64,000 nucleotides of DNA from a virus (lineage: Duplodnaviria > Caudoviricetes): positions 42,485 to 106,484 of IMG/VR virus record IMGVR_UViG_2910013374_000001; one strand, 5' to 3'. The position numbers were made by a program, and so were the translations under genes. The notes beneath the pieces are model-generated. The model was not told where the DNA came from. It ran no database searches and saw only the letters and a list, made by a program, of their open reading frames with translations. Shown in pieces: positions 24,253 through 42,500 of the stretch (position 1 is the first letter of the stretch; every line of letters begins with the position of its first letter).

Positions 24253-24253
24253 T

Positions 24254-24312
24254 CGAGGTCCTCTCAAAGACAAGATCTGCGCTCATATATGTATCGCCCG
24301 CAGAGCCAAGGG
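24254..24312 (-). repeat. Dispersed 59-bp element, copy 3 (inverted)
   Basis: CGAGGTCCTCTCAAAGACAAGATCTGC-N22-GAGCCAAGGG on + strand. Confidence 0.9.
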
Positions 24313-24347
24313 CTCCGGAACCCTGAACCGACGTGATCGACGGTTCT

Positions 24348-24767
24348 GTGGCCTGTATCCAACACCCTGGCATCACCGTCACATTCACCGACGGAACCAC
24401 TCTGTACAAGGTTCAGATCGACAAGTTCACTGCTGAGCCCAGGCAATTCGTTGAGGCCGGCCAACTGACATTCAGTACGTCGGGAACTGCAACCCAGTCA
24501 GGCAGCAGCCGTGCGAACCGGATGACATGGGCGATCAGCGCCTTCGCAAGCGTCGAGACCTGTTTCAGTCTTGATGAGCTTTATCGCGCCTGGGATGCAG
24601 CAAGAGCTTCAGGCCTGACAGCTGTGGTTGCGATCACCGATCAGACCCGCGTCCGAGACCCGATCAATTCCCCCATTACTGCTTCTGCTGTTTTTACTGC
24701 TCCTCCTGTCTTCGAGCGCCGTTCAGGTGTCACGGACTTGCTGAGCTTCGGACTGACGGAGATCTGA
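24348..24767 (+). CDS. Putative distal tail protein
   Basis: Immediately after tape measure; GTG 24348 is 32 nt after CGGAACCCT (alternative start 24333). Confidence 0.55.
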   Translation: MACIQHPGITVTFTDGTTLYKVQIDKFTAEPRQFVEAGQLTFSTSGTATQSGSSRANRMTWAISAFASVETCFSLDELYRAWDAARASGLTAVVAITDQTRVRDPINSPITASAVFTAPPVFERRSGVTDLLSFGLTEI

Positions 24768-24770
24768 TTC

Positions 24771-26987
24771 ATGGCATGGCTTAACAACACAGCGGTCCGC
24801 TGCACGGTCTCCATCAACGGCGCGGACTACAGCGACGAGTTCACCGGCGGTTCTCTGTCGGATTCGAGTGTTGTCCAAGGAGGATTCGTCACGACGGGCG
24901 GGAGCCTCACCTTTCAAGACTTACCCGGATTCAGCCGCCTAGAGGACTACGACGACACGAAGTTTGGTCGTGGAGGCATTGTCACGATCGACCTGCAAAC
25001 CGCAGGTTCTGAGATGCGCCGCCATCCTCGCGGTCACCTTCGCGTGATCACGGCCACCTATTCGCCAGAGACACGTTCGATGACTGTCGAGGTGGGTTGC
25101 CTGCTCACATTGCACAACTTGACGAATGACATCACCAACCTGAAATACCTGACGGTCTTCGACTTGCCAAACGAGGCGGGGATGAGCGATCTCAGTGCCG
25201 CACTGGCTTCTGAATCGAAGTTCGCATGGCAAAAGAGCGACGGCTCGATACAGCTCTCTTCCTTCTTCGGATCTGACGGACTCGGCTCCAATAAATACCC
25301 GGCTAGGTGGGTCAGCGTTCGCGATCAGACGGCCATCGCGTCCCAGCCGCTAGGCGGAGGCAATCCAATCCCAGACCTGATCCGGTGCACCTACACCTGG
25401 GCAACTGTCGAGTCAGACGATGGCGGCGGCGGCGATGGACCAGCTGAGGACATCGATGAAACGGTCTCTGTTTATTGGCTGGAGCACCCCGCTCAACTGA
25501 AGAAGACTCAAAAAATATGCACCACTGACTTGGCTGGGACTAGGACCTGCCGACAGGTCGAAGTCAATGACGGCAAGAAATCCTTCTCAGTCACTAAGAC
25601 CAACAATTCAAGGCGTGTCTACGGAGCACTCGGTGCCTCTTTATCTAGCGAGATCTCAATCACGGAGGGGCCTGCTGTTGAGCTCGCTGGCGGATACTTC
25701 GGCGAGCTCTATGCGTTCAAGCTTGCTCGAGCTAACTACGTTGCGGCCAACGTTCCCCTCGACGGTCTGAACACGGTCGTCCAAGAGAAGAGAGAGAAGA
25801 GCTACGTCTACGGGACCGGTGGCGAAGTACTCAAGACCATTGAGTACACCTACAGGAACTACATCTCGGCGATGACTACGAACGACTGGCGAGCAGGAAC
25901 GTTCGACACTGGCTCTGAGTACGACCCAGAGAACCCCCCGTCGCAGGGCACTCGTGGATTCTTGACTGACATCCCCTCCGACAAGTTGTACTTATCGCAA
26001 AAGGTCACCACTGAGTGGGAGTACTTCGATGACCGCACGATTGAGAAGAAGTCCACCCTCCAATCAAGTGCTCAGTGCAACGGCGTTGGCATCTTCCCAA
26101 CCCAAGGCGAGCGAATCCTTGAGAACATCGATGCGACCAATAACGGAGTCGAAACTTCGCAGACGCGGACCAGTCGTGGAGGCTTGCTAAATCCTGACCA
26201 GCCGCCAAGGAATCCAGGCACAGCTGCGATTTCAACGAAGTCAGAGGTTTATGAGAACGAGTCTGCGAAATACACACCAACGACTGCTGGATCCATCGTC
26301 TTGAACACGAGCGTCCCTTACACGAATTTGGGCGACACAGAATCACAAGCAAGGACTAGAGCTGCCGCCTACACCCAAAACCAGCGCCAGTTACTCGAGG
26401 GCGACGCTGCTGGCATCAGGGTGGCCGAATCGATGCGCGAGGAAATCTTTGACTACTACCCAGGGATGCCTTTCAGCTTCTTCGACCCCACGCTTGAGAA
26501 ACTCATCAAGTTGAGGATGAACGCAACGGGGTGGGCTCTTTCGACCAGTCAAGCGATCTTCTCGACCGACGGAGTGTTCATTGGTGTCTCGAATGGCACG
26601 GTCACTCTTCCCAGCAACGTTGACGCAGTCAGCGCCAACAACGCTTTCGAGGAAGTGCTCTTCAAGAGGAATCAGACGGAAATCGCTGAGGATGCCTTTG
26701 AGGTCGCCGATCAAGCTTGCGACGTTGACCTTGACCTGCTGGCAGCTATCGAAGAGGAGCAGGCAGAACGACTCCTTCCTGACGAGCCCGACCAGATCTT
26801 TGAGGCTCTTGTGATTCAGGTTCCTGAATTTGTCGTGACGACAGGAGCACCTGAGCCGGACGAGATCTTCGTTGTCGACATTCAGAACGATGCGCCACCT
26901 GCCAACAAGACCTACGGAGTGATCAGCGCAGAAGAGTCCTTCGAGGTCATAACCGCGGACACTTTCGAGGTGACAGTTGCCGACTAG
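24771..26987 (+). CDS. Putative baseplate hub/tail-tip protein with C-terminal PDQIFxV-type repeats
   Basis: Position after Dit-like gene; size; repeat tail. Confidence 0.6.
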   Translation: MAWLNNTAVRCTVSINGADYSDEFTGGSLSDSSVVQGGFVTTGGSLTFQDLPGFSRLEDYDDTKFGRGGIVTIDLQTAGSEMRRHPRGHLRVITATYSPETRSMTVEVGCLLTLHNLTNDITNLKYLTVFDLPNEAGMSDLSAALASESKFAWQKSDGSIQLSSFFGSDGLGSNKYPARWVSVRDQTAIASQPLGGGNPIPDLIRCTYTWATVESDDGGGGDGPAEDIDETVSVYWLEHPAQLKKTQKICTTDLAGTRTCRQVEVNDGKKSFSVTKTNNSRRVYGALGASLSSEISITEGPAVELAGGYFGELYAFKLARANYVAANVPLDGLNTVVQEKREKSYVYGTGGEVLKTIEYTYRNYISAMTTNDWRAGTFDTGSEYDPENPPSQGTRGFLTDIPSDKLYLSQKVTTEWEYFDDRTIEKKSTLQSSAQCNGVGIFPTQGERILENIDATNNGVETSQTRTSRGGLLNPDQPPRNPGTAAISTKSEVYENESAKYTPTTAGSIVLNTSVPYTNLGDTESQARTRAAAYTQNQRQLLEGDAAGIRVAESMREEIFDYYPGMPFSFFDPTLEKLIKLRMNATGWALSTSQAIFSTDGVFIGVSNGTVTLPSNVDAVSANNAFEEVLFKRNQTEIAEDAFEVADQACDVDLDLLAAIEEEQAERLLPDEPDQIFEALVIQVPEFVVTTGAPEPDEIFVVDIQNDAPPANKTYGVISAEESFEVITADTFEVTVAD

Positions 26988-27024
26988 GGACTGGGAACCC
27001 TAGCCGTGATGCCAGGCCCCTTGT

Positions 27025-29466
27025 ATGCCCGATTACAACTACCTGGAAGATCTCACCGATGCTGAGCTTGAAGCTCTTCGGGTCGAGGTCGCTTCACGTT
27101 GTTCGGTGTGCCAGGTCGAGGTCGAGGATTTACAGGACGCTTTAGACGATGCAAGCCAGGCAGAAGAAAACGCTCAACAGACATACGAAGACACCGTTGA
27201 AGCAGTAGTCCAGATTCCAACTGTTGTTGGTGAAACATCTGTTTCTTCGGGTGGCTCTGGTCCAGACGTTGTCGAATTCATTGCCATCGATATCCCTGTC
27301 GGCGCTGTGGTCTCCACCGGAAATGGTGACGATGGCATCGGAGTCCTTACGAGCTGGGATGTCCCAGAGGAGTTGCGGCTCAACTTCAACATCTTGGTCT
27401 TCGTTTCAGGCGAGAAGGTTGGAGCGAATGCCCAGATCCTTGAAGCGGACTACATCGGCGGCATCCCTGACTTCCAGGACAGCATCCTTGTCTCTGACGA
27501 TGGTGTGATCATTCCAGATCTGTTTGATCCAGAGGTGGAGCGCAGTCCGGATCAGACTTTCTTTGTTGGAACAGGTCCGAAGGCTTTTGAAGAGGTCTTC
27601 ACGGTGAGGGTCTTCGCTGAGGTTCCAAACCAAACCTTTGATGTCAGCACATTCGCGAAACCTGCTGATCAGATCTTCAGCGTTGAGAGCATTCGGACTT
27701 ACGGCATCTCCGTGGCTGAGCCTCCTTTCCTCGTAGAGGTGGGTCCAGAAGTACCCGACCAGATCTTCAGTACCAGGACGAGCGCGACTCCTCCGGACAG
27801 GACTTTTGTTGTCAACCGTGGAGCAGAGATTCCCTCGCAGGTTTTCGAAGTACTCACAGGCAACACCTTCGAGGTCTTTACTTCTTTCGCACCTCCGGAC
27901 AGAACGTTCTACGTGCAACTGGGTCCACCACCTGCCAGAGATCCGGATCAAATCTTCGGCGTCTCAGTCGGAGGCCCCGACGCTCCTCCGATCCCCGATC
28001 CTTTCCAGATCTTCGACGTTTCAACGTCATGGGCGACCCCGGACAGAGTTCTCGACATCAAGGTCATCACCAACCGAGTGGTGGATGCCTTCGAGGCTCC
28101 CTTCTCCGTCACCGTCGGCCCAGAAGCACCGTCCCAGGTCTTCGAAGTCATCACAAGCGCCATCCCTTACGACCAACTGTTCAGCTTTGAGGTTGGACCT
28201 GAGATCCCCACTCAGATCTATGACACTGCTGTCATCCAGGAGTTCGAGGTTGATGCCTACGAGCGCAGGGTCACCTATCAGATCCAGGAATCCAATATCT
28301 CTGGCGATGAGAACTACATCGTCAGCGGTGAAGGCCTTGAGTTTGCTGTTGAACCAGAGATCGCTCTGAAGGTTGGTCAGATGGCTCACCTCTACGTGAA
28401 CACCCCAGGGAATGCCCTTTGGATCAAGGACGTCCAAGAGGCGGGTGCAGGCGAACTCGACCCCTACTTCGTGTCAGTTACAAACCAAGGCACGACCAAC
28501 AAGCTTGTGAAGGCTCAGTTCTTGCAGAGCGGGACCTTCTACTACCAGTCGGAGTTCAACGCTGAAGCCTTTGGTGTCATCGAGGTGACAGGCGTGTCTT
28601 CTGCAGCTCCTGATCAAATCTTTGATGTCTTCGTTGGAGCTGATCCCACGGGGTTCAGCGAATTGTTCGATGTGACCGTCGGCCCGGAATTCCCTGACGA
28701 GGTCTTCGTCGTGGACATTCAAAACGAAGCGCCTCCTGTTCACCAGATCTTCGAAAGCACTGTTGGACCTGAGCTTCCTCTCGAGAGCTTCGAAGTTCTC
28801 AGCGCAACCGCGCCGCTCTCCTACAACGTGACCAACTCTGGAGCTGGCTCGTACCTGTTCAGCGGGAATGGACTGAGTTTCGCGTCCAATCCCACACTCA
28901 ATCTCGAGGTGGGGCAAATGCTCGAAATTGCTATCAATGCAGCCGGCCACCCCTTCTACGTCAGCGACAGCAACTCAAGTGGCGTGAAGGACTCCGTCAC
29001 TCCTTACATCCACGACATCGTCGGTCAGGGGGCTGCTTTAGGAGCGATCCGCGTGATCTTCTCCCAGCCCGGCACGTACTACTACAACTGCGGTTTCCAT
29101 GCCGCCATGAGTGGAGAGATCGTCGTCACGGGCGTCGGCATGGATCAGAAGATCTACACGGTGTCGCAGGCTCAGGATCGCTACACCCTCTCCGGTGAAG
29201 GCTTGCTGAATGAGAGCAACCCGACCATCAGCGTCGGTGTGAGCGAAACCTTGTTCTTGTCTGTGGTGGCACCGGATCAGCCCGTCTACATCAAACGCGC
29301 TCCTGGCACTGGCACCGAAGTCCAGAGCCCCGACTTCATGCAGCTCCTTGTGAGACAGGGAACAACTGACGGCCTTATGAAGATGCGCTTCCTGCTTCCC
29401 GGCACCTATTACTACGCCAGCTCGAACGACCAGAAGTTCGGGGGAGTGATTGAAGTCACGGCCTAA
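27025..29466 (+). CDS. Tail-associated protein with >20 PDQIFxVxV repeats and three cupredoxin-like domains
   Basis: NPTLNL..G...GHPF...PGTYYYNCGFHAAMSG in domain 2; degenerate domains 1 and 3. Confidence 0.75.
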   Translation: MPDYNYLEDLTDAELEALRVEVASRCSVCQVEVEDLQDALDDASQAEENAQQTYEDTVEAVVQIPTVVGETSVSSGGSGPDVVEFIAIDIPVGAVVSTGNGDDGIGVLTSWDVPEELRLNFNILVFVSGEKVGANAQILEADYIGGIPDFQDSILVSDDGVIIPDLFDPEVERSPDQTFFVGTGPKAFEEVFTVRVFAEVPNQTFDVSTFAKPADQIFSVESIRTYGISVAEPPFLVEVGPEVPDQIFSTRTSATPPDRTFVVNRGAEIPSQVFEVLTGNTFEVFTSFAPPDRTFYVQLGPPPARDPDQIFGVSVGGPDAPPIPDPFQIFDVSTSWATPDRVLDIKVITNRVVDAFEAPFSVTVGPEAPSQVFEVITSAIPYDQLFSFEVGPEIPTQIYDTAVIQEFEVDAYERRVTYQIQESNISGDENYIVSGEGLEFAVEPEIALKVGQMAHLYVNTPGNALWIKDVQEAGAGELDPYFVSVTNQGTTNKLVKAQFLQSGTFYYQSEFNAEAFGVIEVTGVSSAAPDQIFDVFVGADPTGFSELFDVTVGPEFPDEVFVVDIQNEAPPVHQIFESTVGPELPLESFEVLSATAPLSYNVTNSGAGSYLFSGNGLSFASNPTLNLEVGQMLEIAINAAGHPFYVSDSNSSGVKDSVTPYIHDIVGQGAALGAIRVIFSQPGTYYYNCGFHAAMSGEIVVTGVGMDQKIYTVSQAQDRYTLSGEGLLNESNPTISVGVSETLFLSVVAPDQPVYIKRAPGTGTEVQSPDFMQLLVRQGTTDGLMKMRFLLPGTYYYASSNDQKFGGVIEVTA

Positions 29467-29511
29467 GGGCGTTCGGAACCCTACGGCCGAACACGCGACG
29501 CCCCCCATTCA

Positions 29512-29850
29512 ATGGCTGTCTTTTACATCGACAATGTCGCCCAGGACACCTTGACCATGGTGAAGGGCAACATCTACCGCTTCGACCAGAACAACGGGTC
29601 GAATGCTGCAGCACCCTTAAGTCTTTCCGAAACCGAGGACGGCGACAACAACGCTGGCGCCCCATACACCGTGGGCGTGAGCTACTGGTTGAACAATCTT
29701 GAGGTGAACAGGACCACTTACCTGTCCGGCTTCGCAGGCGCCACCTCCCGCTTCATCCAGGTCCAAGTCGACCCCTCTGCACCAGCGGTCCTCTATTACT
29801 ACGCAGTCGGAACACCGACCATGGGCGGCCCGATCAATATCACCACCTAA
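29512..29850 (+). CDS. Small cupredoxin-like virion protein lacking the first strand and Cu ligands
   Basis: FYID..Q.TL...KG..YRFDQ...SN..P...AP..LYYY...MGG.I pattern. Confidence 0.65.
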   Translation: MAVFYIDNVAQDTLTMVKGNIYRFDQNNGSNAAAPLSLSETEDGDNNAGAPYTVGVSYWLNNLEVNRTTYLSGFAGATSRFIQVQVDPSAPAVLYYYAVGTPTMGGPINITT

Positions 29851-29864
29851 AGGAGGGCTGAACA

Positions 29865-30302
29865 ATGCCAGTCCCCTCACAGGTATCGGCCGCCGAACTA
29901 GCGCGGGTGGCCGAGAAGTCGTACATCAACAACACGTTTCGTGTTGCCTTGGTGGATGCCCCTGGCAGCGACTTCGACGCAACCGACTCACTGTCAACGA
30001 TCTTGGCGAACGAGGTCACCTCGGGGCTTGGCGGTTACAGCCGCCAGCAAATTGGCTACACCTCAGCTGACCTTGACAGCTACAACAACGGCAGGAGAGC
30101 TCTCGCTCGTAAGGCAGCCACCTTCGTTCACAACGGGAATACAGCGGAGACGGTCCGCTTCTCTCACGTCGTGCTGCTGAACCCCACAGAAACCGCTGCA
30201 GTTGCAGTCACCAAGCTCTCGGCGCGAGCAACGTTGAGTGATGGGCAGTCCGCGATCTTTTACTTCGACTTAACGCTCTACGGAGTGTTTGTGGTGGAGT
30301 AA
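29865..30302 (+). CDS. Putative tail-tip structural protein
   Basis: FRVALV...NEV..GGYSR pattern; position. Confidence 0.55.
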   Translation: MPVPSQVSAAELARVAEKSYINNTFRVALVDAPGSDFDATDSLSTILANEVTSGLGGYSRQQIGYTSADLDSYNNGRRALARKAATFVHNGNTAETVRFSHVVLLNPTETAAVAVTKLSARATLSDGQSAIFYFDLTLYGVFVVE

Positions 30303-30583
30303 TGGCGAACGAGATACAAGCTGACCTTTTAGGAGCACTGCTCAACTTTCAAGAGTTGGTCAGGACCGAGGAGGTCGTGAGTGCAAAGGAAGCGGCGCTT
30401 GATGAACGCAAAAGAACTGATGTGACCGGCCGCTGGTGGGGTTACACCGCCGATGGTTCCGGACTGGTTCTTTACAACGGCCAGCTTTATGAAGCCGAGC
30501 TTTTATCCAATACCTGTCGCCCGAAGTACTCACCCGTGAACCTCAGAAGGACACGCCAGGGCAACTTCGTCGATTGGCAATAG
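30302..30583 (+). CDS. Small tail protein sharing its N-terminal helix with the Cys-rich giant
   Basis: DLLGALLNFQELVRTEE vs DLLNDLLRIQGEIRAME; TAATG coupling. Confidence 0.6.
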   Translation: MANEIQADLLGALLNFQELVRTEEVVSAKEAALDERKRTDVTGRWWGYTADGSGLVLYNGQLYEAELLSNTCRPKYSPVNLRRTRQGNFVDWQ

Positions 30584-30619
30584 TCCGGAACCCTACGCCG
30601 ACTCAAGCGGACTCGAGCG

Positions 30620-30838
30620 GTGTCGATCAATAGGCCTGAACTCAAGAACACCATCGGCCATCGGTTCGCGACTGACACCGCCATCGCGTGGCGGACAAAG
30701 AACCCAATTACTGCAAGTCCACCAGACAACGTGCCCCTCTTCCCTGGGCAGTTGATCGCGGTCCGCACTGGACCCGCCAGCTGTGACCTTTACGTGGGAT
30801 CCGACGACCGGTCTCGCTGGTTGAAAGTCGGAGGCTGA
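30620..30838 (+). CDS. Small hypothetical late protein
   Basis: GTG 34 nt after CGGAACCCT. Confidence 0.6.
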   Translation: MSINRPELKNTIGHRFATDTAIAWRTKNPITASPPDNVPLFPGQLIAVRTGPASCDLYVGSDDRSRWLKVGG

Positions 30839-30841
30839 TCA

Positions 30842-33800
30842 GTGTCTACCGAAAGAGATCTCCTGAATGACCTCCTAAGGATTCAGGGCGAGATTCGTGC
30901 GATGGAACAGGAGGAGTACGAGCTCTCATACGAAGAGCCCGATCCTGGTCAGCGCCATGGAGGAATCGACGGCTCCGATACCTACGAGCAACGAAGCGGA
31001 CTCAATTACACGGACTCGAGTCCTGCTTCCATCCCGCCCGGAACGCTCATCGTCGAGTCTCCGGCTGACGATCCTGGTGGCTTGATCTTTGCGGATCATC
31101 CCCGCCCTCAAAAAAACAAGGACGGCTCCTGGACCGATGCTCCTTGCACGAACGGTGTCAGCTGCGCCGGTTCTGACTTCTGCTACTCGGACTACGAGTG
31201 CGACCGCTGCTCTCAGTGCGTCAACTCTCAGTGCGTTGAGATTGACCCCAATCGGCCCTGCAACTCCAACGCAGACTGCCCCTGCGCCCCAAGCGAAGAC
31301 CAGAGCTACGTCTGCGAGAACACCCAGTGCAAGCTGACCTGCGCTGAGACACCAGACTGCCCGCTAGGCCAGGCCTGCAACCTTGACAGCTTTCTCTGCG
31401 AGCCAGGCTGTGAGAGCGATGATGCCTGCGATCCCAGCAGCTCAAACGCGGCTCCTGACGCGAAGTCCAACTCGATCTGCGTGAACTTTGAGTGTGTTCG
31501 GCCTTGTGAGCCGGATCTCATCTGCAAGGGTCCAAATGACACCACGACGTGCCCAGAGGGCAGCTACTGCGGCGAACGTGTCGGCAAAGCTCAAGGTGAT
31601 GGCGATGGCGAGATCTATGCCTGTCTCGATGGCTGCTCTAAGAACGAGCAGTGCCAGCCAGAGATCTTTACCGAGCGATGCGATACCGATGTTGATCCCG
31701 ATTGCTCAGACAAGAGCTACGCATACGAGACCTTCTGTGTCGACAACTCTTGCGTCAGGCCGTGCAATGGGAACGAAGACTGCCCTACGGACTTCGGCTA
31801 TGGATGCGTCGCGGGAATCTGTGAGTCCATTGGCTTCATCTGTGTTGGCGATGGCGACTGTGGAGATGGCGAGTACTGCAATGGCGATGGCCGCTGTTCC
31901 TCTGGATGCACCGGCGACATCGATTGCCGCAAGGAATGTCCAGCACTATCGGAATGCGTTTCTACCTGTCCGCCGGAGCCCTCATGCTCTTGCCTGACTA
32001 TCTATGGCGAGGACTCCCTCTGCGATCCGAACGACGATTCTTGGAAGCAATTTTGTGAGCGCGATCCTGCCTGCTTAGGTCGCTGTCCCAGGGATCCAGG
32101 TTGTCTTGAGAGCTTCAACCCCAACGCAGTCTGCGACCAAAACACCTGCATCACTCCCTGTCCTTGTGAAGAGGGTTACAAGTGCGAGGAGGTTGAAGGC
32201 AGATCCCCTCGCTGCGTTTCGGTGACCTCCCGGTCAACCATCGAGAAGTGTTGGGAATGGACCGAAGAGACAGTCGACGCAGACGGAAATATCGAGATCG
32301 TCGAGTTTCGCGAATGCGCTTTTATCAGCCCGAAGCTTGATGAGGATTTCTACGGCTGCGAGTGCGGCGAGCTGTGCACCAAGCAAGGCACGTGTGCCCC
32401 TGGTGTCTGTTCGGTGGATTCGGACTGTGAGAGCTGCAGCTATTGCGACGACGGAGTTTGCGTTCCAGGCTGTGATTCAGAGAATCCATGTGCTGCTGGA
32501 AAGTGCTGCCAGAACGATGGCAAGTGCCACCTCCTTTGCGGCTCTGACAGTGACTGCCCTGACCCCGAGATGTGTCTGGCCGGCGGCTGTTGTGGCATTG
32601 CCTGCGAGCCCATCGTCACCTGCAATCAAAAAAGCGACTGTCCCGAAGGGAGCTATTGCTCAGGGGCTGGCATCTGCGAGGCGGGCTGCCAAGAGCAGAG
32701 CGACTGCGAGAACGGTGAGATCTGCTTCCAGTTCGGATGCGAGCAGTCATGCGGCGCTGGTTGTTTAGACGGAACGATCTGCGGTCCTGACGGATTTTGC
32801 ATCAGTACTCCCAAGCCACCATGCAGTAACGACAACGACTGCACCGATGGCATCTGCCTCGATGGTTCCTGCAATTCGAATGGTTGCCGAACCGATTCAG
32901 AGTGTGGCCGCTATGGGATCTGCAGCGGTCAGACATGCACCAACTATTGCTTAGACGATGCTGAGTGCGCGTCTCTCAACACTGAGACCGAAGACTCAAG
33001 GTGCCAGCGCGACACAGGATCACAGGAAGAAATCAGGCAAAGATACGAGCGCCTCAAGTGGATGGAGGCGAACGGCCAAAATCCTGATCCACAAGAGCTG
33101 CAGCGCTACACGGCTCTGTTCAACAACCTGACAAAAGCTGGCAAATGTGCGCTTCAACCAAGTGGCATTGACAGTCCAGACGGTCGCACTGGATGCGAGT
33201 GCTACGAGAATTGCGACGAGCAGGGTCGCTGCAGTCGATCAGTTTGTGCCAACACGGGCGACTGCGAGTGCGGCGACTGCTTAACGGACAACAAATGTGG
33301 CTACTGCAGACGAGACCAGGACTGCAAGAACAGTCAGGTCTGCGACATTGCGGAAGGCGAGTCAGATGGAGTTTGCGCCACTCCTTGTATCCCGGCCTCA
33401 CCCTGTGGCTCCGATGGTGATTGTCCGGCGGACAGCTACTGCCGACCCGACGCGTTCGGTCGAACTGAAGAAGAGGGTGGCGGTGCCCAGTGCACCCAGG
33501 GATGCCGGAGCGACGCGAGCTGCCTTCCGGGGCAGAAGTGCTACGACAACCGCTGCCTCCCTACTTGTTCGAGTGGCAGCGATTGCAATACGGACACGGA
33601 GCTATGTCTTCGTGGAGTTTGTGTTGAGGTTGGATACTCCTGCCTTTCTGATAGCGACTGTCCTTCCAGTGAGGGCTGGTGCTTAAACGGATATTGCGCG
33701 GAGGATATTCGCTGCTCTGGCGACGAGGACTGCTCAAGCTCTGAGGTCTGCAATCCCGCGACCAGCATGTGTGAGCAGGGTGATCGCTGCAGCTCGAGCA

Positions 33801-36800
33801 GCGATTGCAAGAGAACATGCGAGTCCGATCTTGACTGCGGCAATAAGCAGTGCGAATCAGCTGCCGACTGCACTGAACCTGGTCAGACCTGCAAGCAGTT
33901 CGGTTCTGTTGGCATCTGTGTCGGCGGTTCGGACTACGGAGCCTGCTCTTCTGGTCTTTGCATTGGTGGCAGTTCAGACAATCGCTACTGCGACACAAGA
34001 GGCGTCTGCCAGCAGGGTGAGGCCTGCAACAGCGACAGCGACTGCAACTTTCCCAAGAGCTGCTACAACGGCGGCTGCCAGTTCAAGCGTCGCTGCAACG
34101 GCGACAGCCAGTGCCAGCAGGGAGAGTTCTGTGACGCAGGTTTCTGTGCTGGCGATAACCGCTGCGACGGCGACTATGACTGCGTTGAGGGCTACGCCTG
34201 CAACCAGTCAGGACGTTGCTTCAACGACGATCAGCGGGTCACCGCTATTGAGATTGGCTGCGAAGACTGCCAGATCTGCAACCCCACCACTTTCCGCTGC
34301 GGGAATGAGGTTTGTCCGGGCGACGGCGACAACGGTGACAACGGCGACGAATGCCTGTCCGATAGCGACTGCGAAGCAGGCAAGTGCGTCTGCGATGGCT
34401 CTGGAGAAGATCGCTCATGCCAGTGCATCGAATGCCGCAACGATCAGGACTGCGCGGATGCTTATGGCAGCGGGGACTTGGTTTGCGTTGAAAATGTTTG
34501 CGAGACCCCTTGCTACACGGGGCTTTCGACCGGCGACTGTTTCACCGGCCTCTTCTACGGAGACACCTGTGGCAACTGCCCCGACAAGTGCCCAGGAAAT
34601 GCTGTGTGCACAGAGGTCGACAAGGTCTGCGGTACTTACGAGATCTTCGTAGAAGGCAAGGCCTATACGCGTCCAATCCTTTGCAAAGAGTGCGTCGGCA
34701 ATTGCCAGGCCGACAGTGACTGTCCTGACGATTCGATCTGCTCCAACTCTGGCGCCACGAGCGGCCAGTGCGTCTCGTTCGATGGAACCTGTGACACCGA
34801 TCTCGACTGCCAGAGGTTCAACAGCAAGTTCGGCGAGTCCATGTACTGCATGAACAACAAATGCGAAGTGGGTGAGACCTGTATCGGAAGCTCTGACTGT
34901 TCAGGACAAGAGCTCTGTGGTGGTGAAGGCTTCTGCAGGAAGGGGGTCTGCCTGGAGGATGAAGACTGCGGTGGCGGGCGCACTTGCGTCTTTGGTGCCT
35001 GTGAATTCACCTGCGAGGTGCAAGCCCTTGTCTGTGAGTGCAGTCTCGACCCCTACAGCCCTGGAATTTTGTGCCCAGAGGGATACAACTGCAACTGCGA
35101 TACCAACCTCTGCAGTCGTGAGGGCTACCCCGGTATCGAGCCGACCATGGACGCGGAGTCTTGCCCAAGTGGCACTTTCTGCGACACGGCAAGAAAAGGC
35201 TGCAGGCCATTCATTCAAGGCCAGCTGGAGTGCTTCACCGATGCTGGCTGTTTTGGAGCAAAGACCTGCGAAAAAGGCCTCTGCGTTTCTCGGGATGAAT
35301 TTGGAGAAGAGGTTCCCGATCCCGATCTGGGCGACAATCGCGACAACGCTAAAGCTGCTGACAACTGCGAGCCTCTCGACAAATGCTGCAACGACGAGGG
35401 GTTCTGTGACGACTGCCCCTGTGATGATGAGCACCCTTGCCAGGAAGGCTGCTGTGACCCGGAGTCGGGCTTATGTATCGACTTCAATGAGCACCCTCAA
35501 ACAGAACTCGGAGCTCCCGAGTCCTGCACTTTTGGAGAGGTCTACTGCGAAGTTTTAGGTCCAGAAGGTGATCCACTCGACGTTGTGGTTCTTGGCAAAG
35601 GCAAGGGCTACCAAGGTTGCGAATTCGTCTACGAGGACGAAGATGGCATTCCGCTGAAAGATGGTGAGCGCCGCAAGGTCTGCTGGTCTGGCGCCGATCT
35701 CAGCTCGGCGCAGACATACAAGCTGCTCGTTCAGGAATGCAAGGCCGAGCAAGAAGAGGACAAAGAATGCGAGTGCGATGAAGTGCCTCCAGAAGAAGAC
35801 GAGTGCTTCCGCAATAAAGACTGCGGGAATTGCATGGTCTGCAGGTCTAAGACCTGGCAGAGCACTCCCTGCTGCCCAGTAGCGGATGAGGCTGGTAACG
35901 ACAGCGTTACGAGAAATCTCTGCCGTGCTGTCAATGGAACTTTTGAAGAAGAAGCGCCTGACGAGGACGAGGAATGTGGTTGCTTGTCCGCTTCTGACTG
36001 CGGACCCTGTGAGGCCTGCAACTTCAACGGCTTAAACGGTGAAGAGGGCAGGTGCGTGGCCAAGTGCGAGGAGCTGTGCCCCGATGGAGGCGAACTCAGT
36101 ACTGGCGGAAAGTGCCCAACCTGCGAGGAGAGGTTCGGTAAGTGCGTCGAGGGAGTTTCAGCCACAGTTAAACCTGCAGGCGTTGATCCAGAAACTGGAC
36201 AAGCGGTTCCGGCGGTTACGAAAAGCACTTGCCAAGTCAAGGACGCGAACCAGTGCTGCAGTGGTTTCAGTACTCCTGAAGAGGCAGGCAAAAAACGCGA
36301 CTCTTGCGAGCTAAAAACAGAGACGGATCAGAACGGCAACCTGGAAACCATCGAAGTCCCCTGGTGTATCGACTTCGACGCGGGCATCTGCGCTGGTTGC
36401 ACAGAAGACAGCCACTGCTCTGGCAATAAGACCTGTAGGGGCTACCAGTGCGTCGTTCAGTGCGGCCAGGAAAATGCTGTTGATCCTGAGGCCGGTGACT
36501 GCTCTTGCTGCACCGACGATGGCCAATGCAAAGAGCTCTACGAGAATTGGACAGAATCCCGCGCAAGCGGTGACGAAGGCCAAACCAGACCGTGCTCGTG
36601 CACACAGAATGGAATTGATTGTGCTCCTTACCAAGAAGCAGAGTCCTGCTACGCCTGGGTTCGAGTTGATGGCGGGGAAGGTGGAGATGGTGATCAAGCC
36701 AAGGCTGATCGCGACAAAAATCTTGAGCAGTTGGATGAGTATGAGAAACAAGAACCCTTGCTTCGCTTCGATCTTGAGGATGCGTTGGCCGCTGTCCCTG

Positions 36801-38878
36801 ATGCTTGCATCAACCAAGACATCGTCGATGGGGAGCTAGTTGACTCTTCACGATGTCAATCAGCAAGAAATAGTGCAGCGCAAGCTGATAAAAATCTACA
36901 GGACAACCTCGGATATCAACGCCAGCTTTCGCAACAGTTAAGGAACACGATTTACAGGCCTGCGGAATTCAAACAGGTCAGGAAATGCCAGTGTTGCGTT
37001 GATGGCATGTGTCGTCCTGAGGATGAGTGCACCTACGGAACTTGCTACCTCTGCGTCAAGAAACCGTCCAGCTACTTCCGGGCAGCTCTTTACACATCTG
37101 TTCTAGAGACTGAAGTCTGTACAGGTTGCACTGACCTGAATGGAAACACCCCTGCTCCTGGCGGCTGCACTATCGGGGAATTGGGCGAGGGATATAGCGG
37201 TGGAACGAATTCCGTTTATTTCAGCAGCGAGGAAGGGGACTGTGTGAAATACCGCTGCGAGGATGGCATCTCATGGGTGGATGAGCTTTGCACTGGAACC
37301 AATACTTCTTGGTATGACTACTGCTACGGATCAATCATTGGATGTGTCTTCTCCTGCCGTGACAATCCCAGCGGAGGCAACACCAGCTTCTACAACTATT
37401 GGAACGGTTGGAAATATGACATCGACTGCTCAGAGGCGGGCACGTATGCCTACAACAAGAACACAGAAGGCGATGGTGCAGATCCAAAGAAAGGCATTCG
37501 ACTAAGCAAACCTGAGGAGGATAAGTTCAAGACAGCTTGCGCTTATCCGAATCCGACCGGGTGTATCCAAGGTAATTGGCTCGTTAGATACACCTCCCTT
37601 GTTCAGATCCATCCCTGTTGCCATGAGGCAATCATCTATCACGAGTGCGATCCGGAGCATCCGAACTGCGCTGCAGGACTAGAGCTCCTGTTTGAAGCTG
37701 GCGACAAGACTGGGATCTTGAAGCGTCTGGAGGCTCAGATCAAGGCTCTGGAGAGATATCTTGAAAACCTCGACGAGGTGACGGAGCAACTCAAAGATCT
37801 CAAGGATGTTACGGACAGAGATATTGAGCAGCTTGAAAGAGATCTGGAAAATGCAGAGATTGATGATGACAAACTTGAAGATGATTTGATCAATGCGGAG
37901 GGCTTTATTCCACAGATTGAGGCCGATATAAAAAATCAAGAGCCCAAGGTTGAGAGTGCTACAGAGAAGCGAGATGAAGAATCAGAACAGCTTGAGGAGA
38001 GCAAGGATAAGATTGAAGAGTTGTCGATCGAGAAGGACGAACTAACAGAAGTGCTGACTATTCTCGAAGAAGACTTGGAGAACGCTCAGTCCAACAAAAA
38101 TAGTTCTAAAGCAGCGGCGGAACGCAAACGGAAGGAACTAATAAAGTTGAAGAATCAGCTAGCTATTCTTGGTCAAACAATTGTTGACTACGGCTGCGAA
38201 TGTCCAGGCGATTCCGATTGCGGCGAGCTTCCCAATGCTGACAGTCTTGAATGCTTCAATCTCCTGGAGGAACGTGAAGCATTGGAGATTCGGGCTGATG
38301 AAGTTGAATCAGAAAAGGATTTTCTAGAAGGTGAACGAGATTCCTATGCGGATGAGGAAGCAGAAATCAAAGTTGAAATAAAGCCGATCAAAGATGAAAT
38401 CAAGGAGCTCGAAAAGAAAATCAGCATAGAGCAGAGAAACTATCAAGTTTATTACAAGATTCTTGCCGATGCTCAGTACAAGCTTGATGAGGCGATTGCC
38501 GAGCTTGGATCCCTCAACAATGAACTCCTATCTACAAATCAAGAGGTCATCCGCCTCACTAAGCTTCTAGAAAGGGACGTGGTCCTCGACGAAGTTGGAG
38601 ATATCGAGGAACAGATTGCCAAGAAAGAAGAAATCCTTTCCAATATCGAAAACAGCAATCAAGAAATTGCAAACGAGAAGACCGAATCTGAATCAGAACT
38701 TTCTGCGAAAGAGTCTGAGTTCGACCGCTTGAAAGATGAGCTCGATGTCCCTGTTGTTCCCGAAGCCTCTGGCCCTCCTGCGGAAGGGAAGACCATGAAG
38801 GAGCTCAACGAGGAGTACAAGGAGGTGATTGAGGAAGATAAGAAGAAGGGAGAGGACAAGTGGTATCCAGGGCGCTAG
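30842..38878 (+). CDS. Giant cysteine-rich repeat protein (2678 aa) with C-terminal acidic coiled coil
   Basis: Dozens of C-x2-D-x-DC-x2-G-x2-C-x2-G-x-C modules; heptad-rich E/K/L C-terminus; no signal peptide visible. Confidence 0.9.
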   Translation: MSTERDLLNDLLRIQGEIRAMEQEEYELSYEEPDPGQRHGGIDGSDTYEQRSGLNYTDSSPASIPPGTLIVESPADDPGGLIFADHPRPQKNKDGSWTDAPCTNGVSCAGSDFCYSDYECDRCSQCVNSQCVEIDPNRPCNSNADCPCAPSEDQSYVCENTQCKLTCAETPDCPLGQACNLDSFLCEPGCESDDACDPSSSNAAPDAKSNSICVNFECVRPCEPDLICKGPNDTTTCPEGSYCGERVGKAQGDGDGEIYACLDGCSKNEQCQPEIFTERCDTDVDPDCSDKSYAYETFCVDNSCVRPCNGNEDCPTDFGYGCVAGICESIGFICVGDGDCGDGEYCNGDGRCSSGCTGDIDCRKECPALSECVSTCPPEPSCSCLTIYGEDSLCDPNDDSWKQFCERDPACLGRCPRDPGCLESFNPNAVCDQNTCITPCPCEEGYKCEEVEGRSPRCVSVTSRSTIEKCWEWTEETVDADGNIEIVEFRECAFISPKLDEDFYGCECGELCTKQGTCAPGVCSVDSDCESCSYCDDGVCVPGCDSENPCAAGKCCQNDGKCHLLCGSDSDCPDPEMCLAGGCCGIACEPIVTCNQKSDCPEGSYCSGAGICEAGCQEQSDCENGEICFQFGCEQSCGAGCLDGTICGPDGFCISTPKPPCSNDNDCTDGICLDGSCNSNGCRTDSECGRYGICSGQTCTNYCLDDAECASLNTETEDSRCQRDTGSQEEIRQRYERLKWMEANGQNPDPQELQRYTALFNNLTKAGKCALQPSGIDSPDGRTGCECYENCDEQGRCSRSVCANTGDCECGDCLTDNKCGYCRRDQDCKNSQVCDIAEGESDGVCATPCIPASPCGSDGDCPADSYCRPDAFGRTEEEGGGAQCTQGCRSDASCLPGQKCYDNRCLPTCSSGSDCNTDTELCLRGVCVEVGYSCLSDSDCPSSEGWCLNGYCAEDIRCSGDEDCSSSEVCNPATSMCEQGDRCSSSSDCKRTCESDLDCGNKQCESAADCTEPGQTCKQFGSVGICVGGSDYGACSSGLCIGGSSDNRYCDTRGVCQQGEACNSDSDCNFPKSCYNGGCQFKRRCNGDSQCQQGEFCDAGFCAGDNRCDGDYDCVEGYACNQSGRCFNDDQRVTAIEIGCEDCQICNPTTFRCGNEVCPGDGDNGDNGDECLSDSDCEAGKCVCDGSGEDRSCQCIECRNDQDCADAYGSGDLVCVENVCETPCYTGLSTGDCFTGLFYGDTCGNCPDKCPGNAVCTEVDKVCGTYEIFVEGKAYTRPILCKECVGNCQADSDCPDDSICSNSGATSGQCVSFDGTCDTDLDCQRFNSKFGESMYCMNNKCEVGETCIGSSDCSGQELCGGEGFCRKGVCLEDEDCGGGRTCVFGACEFTCEVQALVCECSLDPYSPGILCPEGYNCNCDTNLCSREGYPGIEPTMDAESCPSGTFCDTARKGCRPFIQGQLECFTDAGCFGAKTCEKGLCVSRDEFGEEVPDPDLGDNRDNAKAADNCEPLDKCCNDEGFCDDCPCDDEHPCQEGCCDPESGLCIDFNEHPQTELGAPESCTFGEVYCEVLGPEGDPLDVVVLGKGKGYQGCEFVYEDEDGIPLKDGERRKVCWSGADLSSAQTYKLLVQECKAEQEEDKECECDEVPPEEDECFRNKDCGNCMVCRSKTWQSTPCCPVADEAGNDSVTRNLCRAVNGTFEEEAPDEDEECGCLSASDCGPCEACNFNGLNGEEGRCVAKCEELCPDGGELSTGGKCPTCEERFGKCVEGVSATVKPAGVDPETGQAVPAVTKSTCQVKDANQCCSGFSTPEEAGKKRDSCELKTETDQNGNLETIEVPWCIDFDAGICAGCTEDSHCSGNKTCRGYQCVVQCGQENAVDPEAGDCSCCTDDGQCKELYENWTESRASGDEGQTRPCSCTQNGIDCAPYQEAESCYAWVRVDGGEGGDGDQAKADRDKNLEQLDEYEKQEPLLRFDLEDALAAVPDACINQDIVDGELVDSSRCQSARNSAAQADKNLQDNLGYQRQLSQQLRNTIYRPAEFKQVRKCQCCVDGMCRPEDECTYGTCYLCVKKPSSYFRAALYTSVLETEVCTGCTDLNGNTPAPGGCTIGELGEGYSGGTNSVYFSSEEGDCVKYRCEDGISWVDELCTGTNTSWYDYCYGSIIGCVFSCRDNPSGGNTSFYNYWNGWKYDIDCSEAGTYAYNKNTEGDGADPKKGIRLSKPEEDKFKTACAYPNPTGCIQGNWLVRYTSLVQIHPCCHEAIIYHECDPEHPNCAAGLELLFEAGDKTGILKRLEAQIKALERYLENLDEVTEQLKDLKDVTDRDIEQLERDLENAEIDDDKLEDDLINAEGFIPQIEADIKNQEPKVESATEKRDEESEQLEESKDKIEELSIEKDELTEVLTILEEDLENAQSNKNSSKAAAERKRKELIKLKNQLAILGQTIVDYGCECPGDSDCGELPNADSLECFNLLEEREALEIRADEVESEKDFLEGERDSYADEEAEIKVEIKPIKDEIKELEKKISIEQRNYQVYYKILADAQYKLDEAIAELGSLNNELLSTNQEVIRLTKLLERDVVLDEVGDIEEQIAKKEEILSNIENSNQEIANEKTESESELSAKESEFDRLKDELDVPVVPEASGPPAEGKTMKELNEEYKEVIEEDKKKGEDKWYPGR

Positions 38879-38914
38879 TGGGTCGGAACACTCAGGCGCT
38901 TCTGACTCGTTTCC

Positions 38915-39475
38915 ATGCAGACCCCTGATTGGACTCACTTCCGCTCAGCGGACACCGACCCCGCCGGCCCCGCATGTCTGCTTGCGACCAGCTTCAGCTT
39001 GAGCGAACTACCTAAGAACTACATCTGGACAATTGGCTATATCGGCCAATGGCTTGGCCCTGAAGAGGCTGAGATCAACGCGCAGGTCAAGTCCTATTCA
39101 AGGGAGTACTTGATCCAGAGGGCTGAGGAGCTTGAGTCCAAAAAGAACGAAGCAGTGCAGAAGCAGCAACAGCTAGAAGCATTGCGACAACAGAGAAACA
39201 GCGAGCTGGACCGCCTCACCAAAGCGAACCTCGGTTTCAAAGATGAAGATGCCATCAAGCAGAGGGTCGAAGCGGGTCCGTTGAAGATGGCTCGAAGCCT
39301 GGTGAAGTCGGCCGCTGACCTGGCGACGGGCGGTGTTACCGATCCAACCGCTCGGATGGAGATCTGCAACACCTGCCCTTTCAAGGGTGACGATCAACGC
39401 TGCGGCAAGTGTGGCTGCTTCTTACCTGCCAAGACCAGGGTCAAGAAATCAAGCTGCCCGATCGGCCGTTGGTAG
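38915..39475 (+). CDS. Protein with C-terminal six-Cys DUF6171-like domain
   Basis: RMEICNTC...CGKCGCF...K......CPIGRW. Confidence 0.72.
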   Translation: MQTPDWTHFRSADTDPAGPACLLATSFSLSELPKNYIWTIGYIGQWLGPEEAEINAQVKSYSREYLIQRAEELESKKNEAVQKQQQLEALRQQRNSELDRLTKANLGFKDEDAIKQRVEAGPLKMARSLVKSAADLATGGVTDPTARMEICNTCPFKGDDQRCGKCGCFLPAKTRVKKSSCPIGRW

Positions 39476-39513
39476 GCGCGGAACCCTAGGCGGATTCTTG
39501 GTTCCAGACGGTT

Positions 39514-42500
39514 GTGGCAAAGCTCGATCAGATACTCCTGAAGACGAGCAACCTGAGCCAGAGGGATCTGATAGATACCCTCGAAGGTAGAGGGAGAGAT
39601 AGTCGAAATAGAATTGAAAAAGGCGAGACCGTTCTTCGCTATACCGGTGCTGGCAGGCTCGGCCCGGAAGGCGAGACGGTAAACGAGTCCCCTGGTCAAG
39701 TCGAATTCTGGACAGTCAACGACAGCGAGGAAGCTGTTCAGATCTACGTGGATTTCGGAGCTGAGATTCCGCCTTGGTCGACCTCCGAGCTGCAAGAAGC
39801 CAGCATCGGTCTCCTGAAGGACGTCGACATCCTCGATGGCGCCAGCGGCGGCGAGCTATTGCTGCAAGCTGGCAAGGTTCTCACCTGGGACGGCGCCAAG
39901 CTTGTGCTGCGCGATCCACCAGGGGTAGGGGAAGGCGCCAAGATCCTTGAGTCCCTGAACAATGTTGGTGACGTCAACTATGGCTTTTACGCAATATCCC
40001 TGAACAAGTTTGGACCTGAGGGTGGCGACATTCTCCTCTACAAGTTCAACAACCTGTCCTCAAAATATGAATGGGCACCGACCAAGTTTGAGATCGATCT
40101 GTTCGATGAATTCACGACCCGGAATCGGTTTCTCGTCTTCAACAGGACTGTCCACAAGGGCATCGAGTTTGGGAATCTCACATCTACTGCGACGTCATCT
40201 GCGCGTTTCTCGGACGCTGGCGGGGCATCCATGCTCTTCAACCAGTACAGAGGTAGGAATCTCAGCAACCGAATCCATGGCGTCGAAGCCAGTTCTTTCG
40301 GTTCCATCAATCTGTCAGTCCGAGACGGTGAAGACATCGTCATCAAACTTGGGGATGGCTATGCAAACAATGAAGGAAAACCTGGCGCTCTTAGATACGA
40401 GCGGATCGATGATGTTCCTTTAACTATTACTGACGAGAGATACTTCGCCACGCTCAAGCACGTCAATCAAGCGATACGTGATTCGGACCTTAACTTCCTC
40501 AACAACGTCAATGACACTGGGATCATTCAGGGACAGGTTTTGTCCTGGGATGCGATCAGACAGGAATACATCCCAACATCGGGGATCGCTCCAGACCTTT
40601 CTCAGGCTTCGATCGAGAGCCTCGAAGACGTCAATGCTCAAGCCAAGGGTCGCGGCAAGCCCCTGACCTGGAACGACACAGATAACACTTGGATCCCTGA
40701 GACTTTGAGGTCGAGAGATCTTGAGTGGGACTACAACCCAGAAGGTTTTGGCAATGGGGTTTTCTCAGAAGATGATCCTCTTGGAGAGGGTTATTGCGAA
40801 GAATGCAAGGAAGAGACTCTCGGCCAATTCACGGTTGCCAGAAACAAGGCTTATGTCTGCCTGAGAACTAGAGATCTCAATTCCAGTACGGGGAATTTCG
40901 AATCCACCTATGACTGGGTCAAGATCCTGGTCGACGGCTACAACCTGACCGAAAATCGCCGTCAATACGCTCCGAACGAGTACAGGCAGGCCTATGGCTT
41001 CGAGAAGCGAAGGGATGCCCTTTCTCCGGCTGCCTACGAGGGAACTCTTGGATCGCTAGCCAACGTCAGTACTGCTGACGTTTTCCCAGGTGCTGCTCCT
41101 ATCTACAACGCCTCGACGTCCTCCTTCGAGATGGGCTTCCCGGCTCTAGACCTGCAGAGCTATTCGGTAGGAGCGCTCGGCGATGTCAATCTCACCGGCG
41201 CTGGTGTGGGCTACGGACTGCTGTGGAACGGCGAGCAGTGGTACGCCAGCAGCCTGGACCAGAAAGTACGACTTGATGATCTTCAGGATGTTCAATTTGG
41301 ATCCTTAGGTGTTACCAACACCAAGATGGTTGCGGCGTTCATGCTTACGGACTCCCCGGCACTTGGCCCTACTTTTGTTTACAACCAAGACGTCTCTACG
41401 ACCCTCGCTGTTTCGACTCCAAAGGACAGCTACTTCCCAGGTTCCACGGCCTACGCCCGCTGGGGAGAAAATGCTTTTGGTGGTGGTCAAGCTCCTACTC
41501 AAGGTGGAACCTATTTCTTCAACTGGAGATCTCAGCCACCGATGTCAGTGGCCGAGATTCTTGACCTCTACATTCGCTGGCCGAAGGACAACTCCTGGCA
41601 GACGATCGACGGTGATGGTGTCATCGAGCTGTACTTCTATCCAACGCAGCTCCTCGACACCAGGACACTTTTCCGTCGCGTTTCTCTGCTCCCAGGCACC
41701 GGCGGCTACATCCTGCAACTCGATCAGACAGGCGCCTTGCGCTTTGCCGTGTCAGCACCTTCCGGCGAGATTGGCTTCACGATTTCAACGGTTTCCAACT
41801 TCATCTCGACTAACAACTGGCACCACGTCGCTCTTGTTAAAGAGGGAGCATCCAACAGGATGTATGTCGACGGGGATCTTGTAGGCGAGGCCCTAAGCAC
41901 CACCCCTTGGACAGGTGACGACATGTTCGTCATGGGTCGGAACGACCTCGATGACAACAATGTTCTGACGCATCATTTCTTCCGTGGTGTCATGTCTGAC
42001 CTGAGGGTCACCAAAGGACGCAGCAAATACAGCGGAAACTCTTATTCGCAGCCTGCATCAATCGAAGCTGAGATTATTGACACCACCCCGAATGCTGGCG
42101 ATTTTCTTAGTTACGACGGCACAAGGTGGACCAATGTTTCTGGCGTTGAGGGCGACATCAGCAACAAGTCGATCAATGAACTTGCAGATGTAGATACCGG
42201 CACCAACGACCCAGCACAGGGTGATGCCTTGGTCTGGACTGGCGCAGCCTGGGAGCCTGGCATTCCTGGCATTGGCGCCACGTGGTCGTTGAACGACATG
42301 ACAGATGTCGAGACCTTCTATCAATCAGGAACTCCTTCGATTCGCTTCTCTCAGGCCGAGAAGCTCAATTTCAGCAATGCCTTCAATGCAAGTGATGACG
42401 GGGGCTCGATAAGCCAGGCCCGCCAGGGGAACCAGTCCTTCGGGATTGTGACCCAGTGGAACGACTGCAGTCATGTGTGCGGGTCAGGAAGCCCCTGCGG

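Follow-up and report, generated by a model that had tools for sequence, protein, structure and literature searches.

A giant cysteine-rich protein in a phage tail module as a candidate disulfide-stapled tail appendage

The stretch analyzed here is a 64,000-nucleotide (nt) segment (positions 42,485 to 106,484) of IMG/VR virus record IMGVR_UViG_2910013374_000001, a 99%-complete marine cyanobacterial provirus of 106 kb; we call this stretch the window, and coordinates are positions in it unless stated otherwise. Its tail module holds a gene for a giant cysteine-rich protein (30842-38878, + strand), a single unbroken frame of 2,678 codons with a GTG start whose product is the orthologue of open reading frame (ORF) 084 of cyanophage P-SS2. 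The 290-kDa product has a calculated isoelectric point of 4.1 (542 Asp plus Glu vs 221 Lys plus Arg) and 298 Cys, or 11.1% of its residues. These Cys begin at residue 102, reach residue 2276 at the end of the main stretch and are spread at 5-22 per 100 residues, while the final ~390 residues are very acidic, helical and Cys-free except for a four-Cys island at 2452-2471; the C-terminal end reads K-W-Y-P-G-R. Neither a signal peptide (Kyte-Doolittle maximum of 0.44 in a 12-residue window over the first 60 residues) nor, in a hydropathy scan of the whole protein, a membrane-like segment was found. A first-pass annotation of this DNA had described just such a protein, with some 300 Cys, C-x2-D-x-D-C modules, an acidic coiled coil with a Cys cluster near its middle, no signal peptide and a place among tail-tip genes, and all of these features are borne out by the counts and comparisons given here.

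The remainder of the 106-kb element averages 1.0% Cys, and its other large virion proteins hold 0-0.5%; the tape measure protein and two large fibre proteins of the same phage have none at all. The large virion proteins with zero Cys are the tape measure protein (17788-24252, 2,154 aa) and those at 45129-47474 (781 aa), 47509-51345 (1,278 aa) and 11612-13402 (596 aa). The GTG start of the giant is right because homologues retain the N-terminal helix, with the first 20 residues kept, behind an ATG; the public gene call, which begins at Met21 and gives 2,658 aa, is 20 residues too short (30842-30901).

The giant ORF is real, and its Cys are under strong constraint. Specifically, 17 full-length homologues (2,660-3,506 aa, 9.4-11.4% Cys each) align collinearly at 33-54% identity, and 232 of the 298 Cys are invariant across them. 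These 232 belong to a total of 320 invariant positions, with invariance reaching 15% for Gly and 5% for Asp. Further, the Cys count is even in 13 of the 17 homologues, and the 263 consensus Cys columns show 62 substitutions, of which 46 belong to ten pairs lost together in one sequence, the partners lying 8-48 residues apart. Several of these pairs are lost repeatedly, in 2-5 homologues each (three times for 1664/1712, four times for 787/810 and five times for 1915/1933), and large lineage-specific gains often come in multiples of four, that is, as whole modules. Because four-ligand metal sites would behave otherwise, the pairwise loss points to disulfides and not to metal clusters, and disulfides are the bonding that these alignments favour.

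A search of 50,697 phage records with the giant gave only one match, P-SS2 ORF084 (YP_003084228; three P-SS2 records), a protein of 2,613 aa with 282 Cys that is collinear over 90% of the query at 29% identity and, like the giant, is flanked by the equivalents of ORF082, ORF083 and ORF085. ORF084 was detected in purified P-SS2 virions by ~43 peptides, compared with 3.5 for ORF082, 2 for ORF083 and 0 for ORF085, the orthologue of the 186-aa protein encoded after the giant (Sullivan et al. 2009, PMC2784084); that study makes no mention of cysteine and leaves ORF084 uncharacterized. By this comparison, the giant is probably a virion-borne protein, and the family is not one that is missing from particles. 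No characterized homologue, and none of known function, was found among the family members.

The Cys-rich body follows a canonical unit of ~22 residues, C-x5-C-x5-C-x5-C with S/D-x-D ahead of the second Cys. The commonest Cys spacing in the giant is C-x5-C (94 of 297 gaps); there are 18 copies of the strict motif C-x2-D-x-D-C, and a looser definition of the module anchor gives 44. Since only 16.6% of body residues are hydrophobic and 0.2% are His, next to 14.6% Cys, the body has little besides cross-links to hold a fold. Pattern scans of metagenomes and genomes revealed distant relatives of the module in Myxococcota and other metagenomic contigs. These proteins start with a signal peptide or lipobox and contain 15-17% Cys. 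Both Dickkopf_N (PF04706) and DUF7107 (PF23416) match them, the latter with E values as low as 4e-67 and as many as 24 repeats, in keeping with the earlier statement that such repeats typify secreted proteins. The giant shares with them the ~22-residue unit C-x2-D-x-D-C-P-x-G-x2-C-x2-G-x-C and its long tandem arrays, with a tandem four-Cys unit, an acidic first loop and a Gly-containing hairpin, although its modules are far more divergent than the cellular ones. Residues 851-1170 score 24.7 bits against PF23416 (cut-off 24.6) and residues 523-703 score 22.6 bits; a hidden Markov model built from 65 cellular modules recognizes eight modules of at least 8 bits in the giant, whereas 30 shuffles of the body gave none; and a phmmer search of a database of 5.8 billion sequences connects residues 500-1170 with PF23416/PF04706 proteins (E = 9e-8). 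A relationship between the giant's modules and secreted DUF7107-type repeats is thus statistically supported at the level of sequence. The Dickkopf_N profile itself gave no match on the giant, for which the N-terminal region of Dkk4 reached only a VIA Z of 3.3; a whole-protein scan against Pfam reported no module family at E <=0.1, and a PDB sequence search with the Cys body returned nothing meaningful. Whole-protein matches to DUF4200, SMC, Rad50 and tape measure profiles in Pfam, PHROGs and NCBIfam were set aside as coiled-coil noise. The cellular DUF7107-type proteins carry signal peptides or lipoboxes, whereas the giant has neither and probably belongs to a particle assembled in the cytoplasm; for a protein with modules of the secreted type, lacking such a signal is genuinely anomalous.

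The layout of the giant runs from an N-terminal helix that is a putative anchor (aa 4-30; 30851-30931, +), with L8 and R19 invariant in the 17 homologues, through a Cys-free linker predicted to be disordered (aa 31-101; 30932-31144, +; predicted local distance difference test [pLDDT] ~30), with a conserved S-x-P-x-G-T patch and an invariant G67, to the Cys-rich body (aa 102-1936; 31145-36649, +). The body consists of ~22-residue four-Cys units, each an acidic turn plus a beta-hairpin, with a few irregular inserts (for example, a small helical insert at aa 725-761). Two predicted helices follow (aa 1949-1989 and 2003-2035; 36686-36946, +), which are poorly conserved and expanded in other clades, and then a beta-rich “head” domain with 9% Cys (aa 2042-2290; 36965-37711, +). 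The head is confined to this protein family: an exhaustive profile search found no relatives outside it among 1.84 billion representatives, and the ESM Atlas held no usable match. The distal part comprises coiled-coil arm 1 (aa 2291-2449; 37712-38188, +; hydrophobic periodicity of 3.53 residues), an apex island C-x-C...C...C (aa 2450-2471; 38189-38254, +), coiled-coil arm 2, predicted to be antiparallel to arm 1 (aa 2472-2633; 38255-38740, +), and a conserved C-terminal tail with an invariant W2674 (aa 2634-2678; 38741-38875, +). K2623, in arm 2 just before the tail, is also invariant. AlphaFold2, run with the 17-sequence alignment, modelled residues 1-1170 (mean pLDDT 65) as a helix at 4-30, disorder at 30-109 and then a turn plus beta-hairpin per ~22 residues (pLDDT 70-88), and residues 1500-2678 (mean pLDDT 66) as the helices at 1949-1989 and 2003-2035, the beta-rich domain (2043-2289 in the model) and a distal end in which a 160-residue helix leads to the Cys-island loop and ~165 residues of helix lead back (pLDDT 85-90).

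Two aspects of the distal end stand out. First, the helical region at ~2290-2640, with 29% Asp plus Glu, carries its Cys island exactly mid-way. The arms on either side measure 166/166 residues in the giant, and 165/169, 168/179, 166/165 and 166/165 in the other four near-clade members. The island thus sits at the midpoint of the coil in five of five, which gives independent support for the predicted hairpin. The coil model matches antiparallel stalks only (Rad50, MukB/SMC, chemoreceptors and PrgA; Foldseek E = 2e-5, VIA-align Z 13-17); long helices often reach Z values in that range, and these model-based matches are an architectural likeness only. Rad50 with its zinc hook, the SMC/MukB arms and enterococcal PrgA do resemble the predicted hairpin in its two ~165-residue arms and Cys-bearing apex, but the giant's apex is C-x-C...C...C, not the CxxC of the Rad50 hook, and the protein has no ATPase domain. 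In the hairpin model, the conserved C-terminal tail is predicted to return to the head domain. Second, the apex retains its four Cys in the near clade while the loops between them are wholly different from one member to the next. By region, identity is 0.43 at the N-terminus, 0.17-0.28 in the coil, the lowest value, and 0.48 over the last 28 residues. The giant combines a gene in the tail module, a conserved proximal end and a variable distal end and apex, as would be expected of a tail-fibre or receptor-binding protein. A search for the N-terminal 110 residues of the giant on shorter proteins, as in an anchor swap, found none save one contig-end fragment.

The homologues also vary in ways peculiar to their clades. 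The distant clades (homologues P0012-P0020) have a longer first helix region, of 218-294 residues, instead of the symmetric hairpin, and a six- to eight-Cys knot ~48 residues ahead of the conserved C-terminal tail. Homologues P0007 and P0008 bear an additional Cys pair ~165 residues past the apex island, a position that corresponds to the base of the stalk in the hairpin model, where the pair could staple the returning arm.

With moderate confidence, we read the giant as a long fibre or adhesin that is anchored to the tail, stapled by disulfides and oxidized late in infection or after lysis. It would be a further form of phage tail appendage, built from secreted-type disulfide modules but made without export. 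The N-terminal helix and flexible linker would attach the protein to the distal end of the tail, perhaps via the two small virion proteins encoded upstream, and ~1,850 residues of four-Cys turn-plus-hairpin modules, closed by up to ~149 intrachain disulfides, would form a thin, very acidic, degradation-resistant thread. Its far end would present the family-specific beta-rich head and a ~24-nm antiparallel coiled-coil stalk, with hypervariable loops at the four-Cys apex. The protein would be made in the reducing cytoplasm and, because it lacks a signal peptide and has almost no hydrophobic core, would probably stay largely unfolded there until oxidized, either late in the infection of an oxygen-evolving host or upon release to oxic seawater. 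Once oxidized, it could serve as a long-reach capture fibre or adhesin, with the head or apex as the likely contact site. In this scheme we infer the anchoring end, the shape and length of the thread, when and where oxidation takes place, and a role as an adhesin; of these, the adhesin role and maturation after lysis are plausible.

Disulfides are not without precedent in phage tails, although the known cases are much smaller in scale. Fibres of cyanophage Pam3 are disulfide-linked and are released by dithiothreitol (DTT) (PMC9942802), and the tail tube of a siphovirus is crosslinked by disulfides (PMC13576161). Pam3 is the closer likeness, as a cyanophage whose tail apparatus depends on disulfides (cryo-electron microscopy, mass spectrometry and DTT treatment; PMC9942802). 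It differs from the case presented here in relying on a handful of inter-subunit bonds in ordinary fibre and wedge proteins, whereas the giant may hold perhaps ~149 intrachain bonds, and no homology between them was found.

Several observations weigh against the disulfide-stapled fibre. The virion evidence comes from the relative P-SS2 and not directly from the phage of the window, and because full reduction and alkylation preceded digestion of the P-SS2 samples, they carry no redox information (PMC2784084). The models of the giant are of medium confidence (mean pLDDT 65-66) and are monomers only, and the layout differs in distant clades, such that the hairpin geometry is not universal. The giant has no recognizable binding domain, and its head domain is without relatives beyond the family. 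The fold search on the modules that the first-pass annotation had suggested did lead to Cys-rich proteins (by Foldseek, LRP2, mastigoneme, NELL, 4-1BB, scytovirin and Dkk4), but all of its matches were weak (Foldseek E >=3e-3; VIA Z <=3.7), and the model was overlong for a single-domain test. Finally, no phage-encoded thiol oxidase was found; specifically, the 106-kb element encodes no Erv/ALR, DsbA or glutaredoxin. What remains would be oxidation that is spontaneous or depends on the host, either late in infection or once the cell has lysed.

Two thioredoxin-fold proteins, which correspond to P-SS2 ORF010 and ORF011, are encoded in the 21.1-23.2 kb region of the element, upstream of the window. 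One is a 97-aa protein with an unusual CGWC motif (L034:1154-1447), and the other is a thioredoxin-like domain (CEPC) fused N-terminally to what we read as a class II ribonucleotide reductase (L034:1522-3258). Lying beside or fused to the reductase, they were read as its reductase partners and rejected as oxidases.

A bolder version of the disulfide-stapled fibre, which we regard as tentative and doubtful, makes its maturation redox-gated. The giant would then be a reduced, disordered polyanionic thread in the cell that folds to a fibre of ~150 disulfides only in oxic seawater or in the oxidized cytoplasm of the dying, oxygen-evolving host, so that infectivity or adsorption would be switched on once the particle is released. 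The tail might also be triggered in part by reduction at the next host, as proposed for Pam3. If true, this would be the first tailed-phage virion component that consists of secreted-type disulfide knots yet is not exported, and it would represent a new oxidative folding route.

A somewhat weaker contender, and an unlikely one in our view, keeps the external thread but gives it a role away from the host: it could shield and stabilize the long tail in seawater, or serve to bind particles, polysaccharide or Ca2+. The very acidic body with its conserved Asp beside Cys would suit such a role, as would the weak resemblance of the modeled fold to scytovirin, wheat germ agglutinin, LRP2 and mastigoneme, and the thread would join several other large fibres that the phage encodes. 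However, those fold matches are not significant, and a hypervariable apex and coil fit host-driven diversification better.

More improbable still is a metal-thiolate scaffold, the “metal-stabilised” option of the first-pass annotation, in which the four-Cys clusters would bind Zn or another soft metal and the protein could fold in the reducing cytoplasm without oxidation. Such a scaffold would agree with a giant made in the cytoplasm without a signal peptide, with units that hold four Cys and with the zinc-ribbon-like cluster of the neighbouring 186-aa protein; tail tip proteins of the lambda gpL type do bind an Fe-S cluster. Yet the Cys are lost by twos and not by fours, the spacing is not that of zinc-binding Cys4 sites with their CxxC knuckles or His ligands (22 CxxC among the 297 gaps, vs 105 C-x5-C, and 0.2% His in the body), and the homologous modules sit in exported proteins. 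Further, ~75 Zn per chain would presumably be costly for oceanic picocyanobacteria in Zn-poor water.

Least probable of all, a giant that is carried reduced and unfolded, ejected and then folded in the oxidizing periplasm of the host, where it might form or hold a conduit, would reconcile secreted-type modules with the missing signal peptide, a reduced body that is a soluble acidic thread (16.6% hydrophobic, net charge -321) and a coiled-coil part weakly resembling tape measure profiles, but the gene follows the tail-tip genes and lies among fibre genes, a separate 2,154-aa tape measure protein is already present, family scans and hydropathy found no membrane-active or lytic domain in the giant, and the tail lumen would hardly accommodate a chain of 290 kDa that includes a folded head and a 24-nm stalk.

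Cysteine is mostly avoided by tailed phages, whose particles are put together in the reducing cytoplasm. With ~300 constrained, pairwise co-varying Cys, a conserved and probably virion-borne protein breaks this rule on a large scale, and it does so with modules otherwise seen only in exported proteins. The question thus posed is where and when ~150 disulfides would form, and whether their redox state controls adsorption; as P-SS2, which carries the orthologue, is a cultured phage, this question is directly testable. The giant may also show how marine virions that persist for long build fibres that are stiff, resist degradation and reach far, and it would provide a first biological context for DUF7107-type repeats.

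The tail-module location rests on conserved gene order. Upstream of the giant lie the 2,154-aa tape measure protein (PHROG E = 3e-88) and then the tip proteins, and downstream are laminin-G-bearing and other fibre proteins. The same order is shared by eight loci, namely, the window, cyanophage P-SS2 (L001) and six metagenomic or viral contigs (L002-L007). It comprises the tape measure protein, proteins of ~139, 700, 460-840, 112, 145, 90 and 72 aa, the giant, and proteins of ~186 and ~1,850 aa. The giant is thereby placed between ORF082/083-like genes on one side and ORF085/086-like genes on the other. Gaps between neighbouring genes are 3-38 nt, and no promoter-like sites or convincing terminators were found within window positions 24-40 kb. 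Sigma-70-like promoter matches in 24000-40000 number 0 in 16 kb, vs 5.3 expected from shuffles, and this promoter-poor stretch would suit a single long late transcript, or else a late promoter of non-canonical type.

One tail-tip protein (27025-29466) carries a type-1-copper-like motif, Y-Y-N-C-x-[FY]-H-x2-M, at aa ~689-740. The motif is kept in four of six loci (including L003:6105-8621, L004:5621-7009 and L006:1642-3030) and lost in L002 and in P-SS2, whose upstream tip protein differs in this from that of the window. Because P-SS2 and L002 both keep the giant, the copper site (C-x2-H-x2-M) was rejected as a required oxidant.

Immediately upstream of the giant are the genes for the two small proteins orthologous to P-SS2 ORF082 and ORF083. 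The first (30302-30583, +; 93 aa) carries an amphipathic helix at its N-terminus and is conserved in its C-terminal half (VDVTG-x-W ... NLRRT), and the second (30620-30838, +; 72 aa) ends 3 nt before the start codon of the giant. The helix D-L-L-x2-L-L-x2-Q-x3-R-x2-E, said in the first-pass annotation to be shared by the 93-aa protein and the giant, is literally present in both proteins here, but the likeness fades at the family level: hhalign places residues 1-20 of the small-protein family on residues 1-20 of the giant family, with the invariant R21 of the former paired with the invariant R19 of the latter, at P = 0.005 and a probability of 7%. Over these 20 columns, and given the poor fit of the P-SS2 small protein to the alignment, the proposal that the helix is a common virion anchor is weak.

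The claim that the giant is flanked by Cys-cluster genes holds on the downstream side alone, the 93-aa protein upstream having a single Cys. Downstream, and directly 3' of the giant in all loci, a gene (38915-39475, +) encodes a 186-aa protein of PHROG 13558 with seven Cys. Its middle is a coiled coil, and six of the Cys form a zinc-ribbon-like cluster at the C-terminus that is DUF6171-like at 23.8 bits, under the cut-off. This cluster is a generic phage module: it occurs in 63 phage records from very different hosts, for example, those of Synechococcus, Stenotrophomonas, Rhizobium and Xanthomonas phages, while in that collection the giant matches three P-SS2 records only, and the 186-aa gene was accordingly rejected as a dedicated partner of the giant. 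The 186-aa protein is probably not part of the virion and may be a regulator within the late structural operon. Its counterparts in P-SS2 and S-CBS2 are annotated as “DNA-directed RNAP” or “RNA polymerase-like”.

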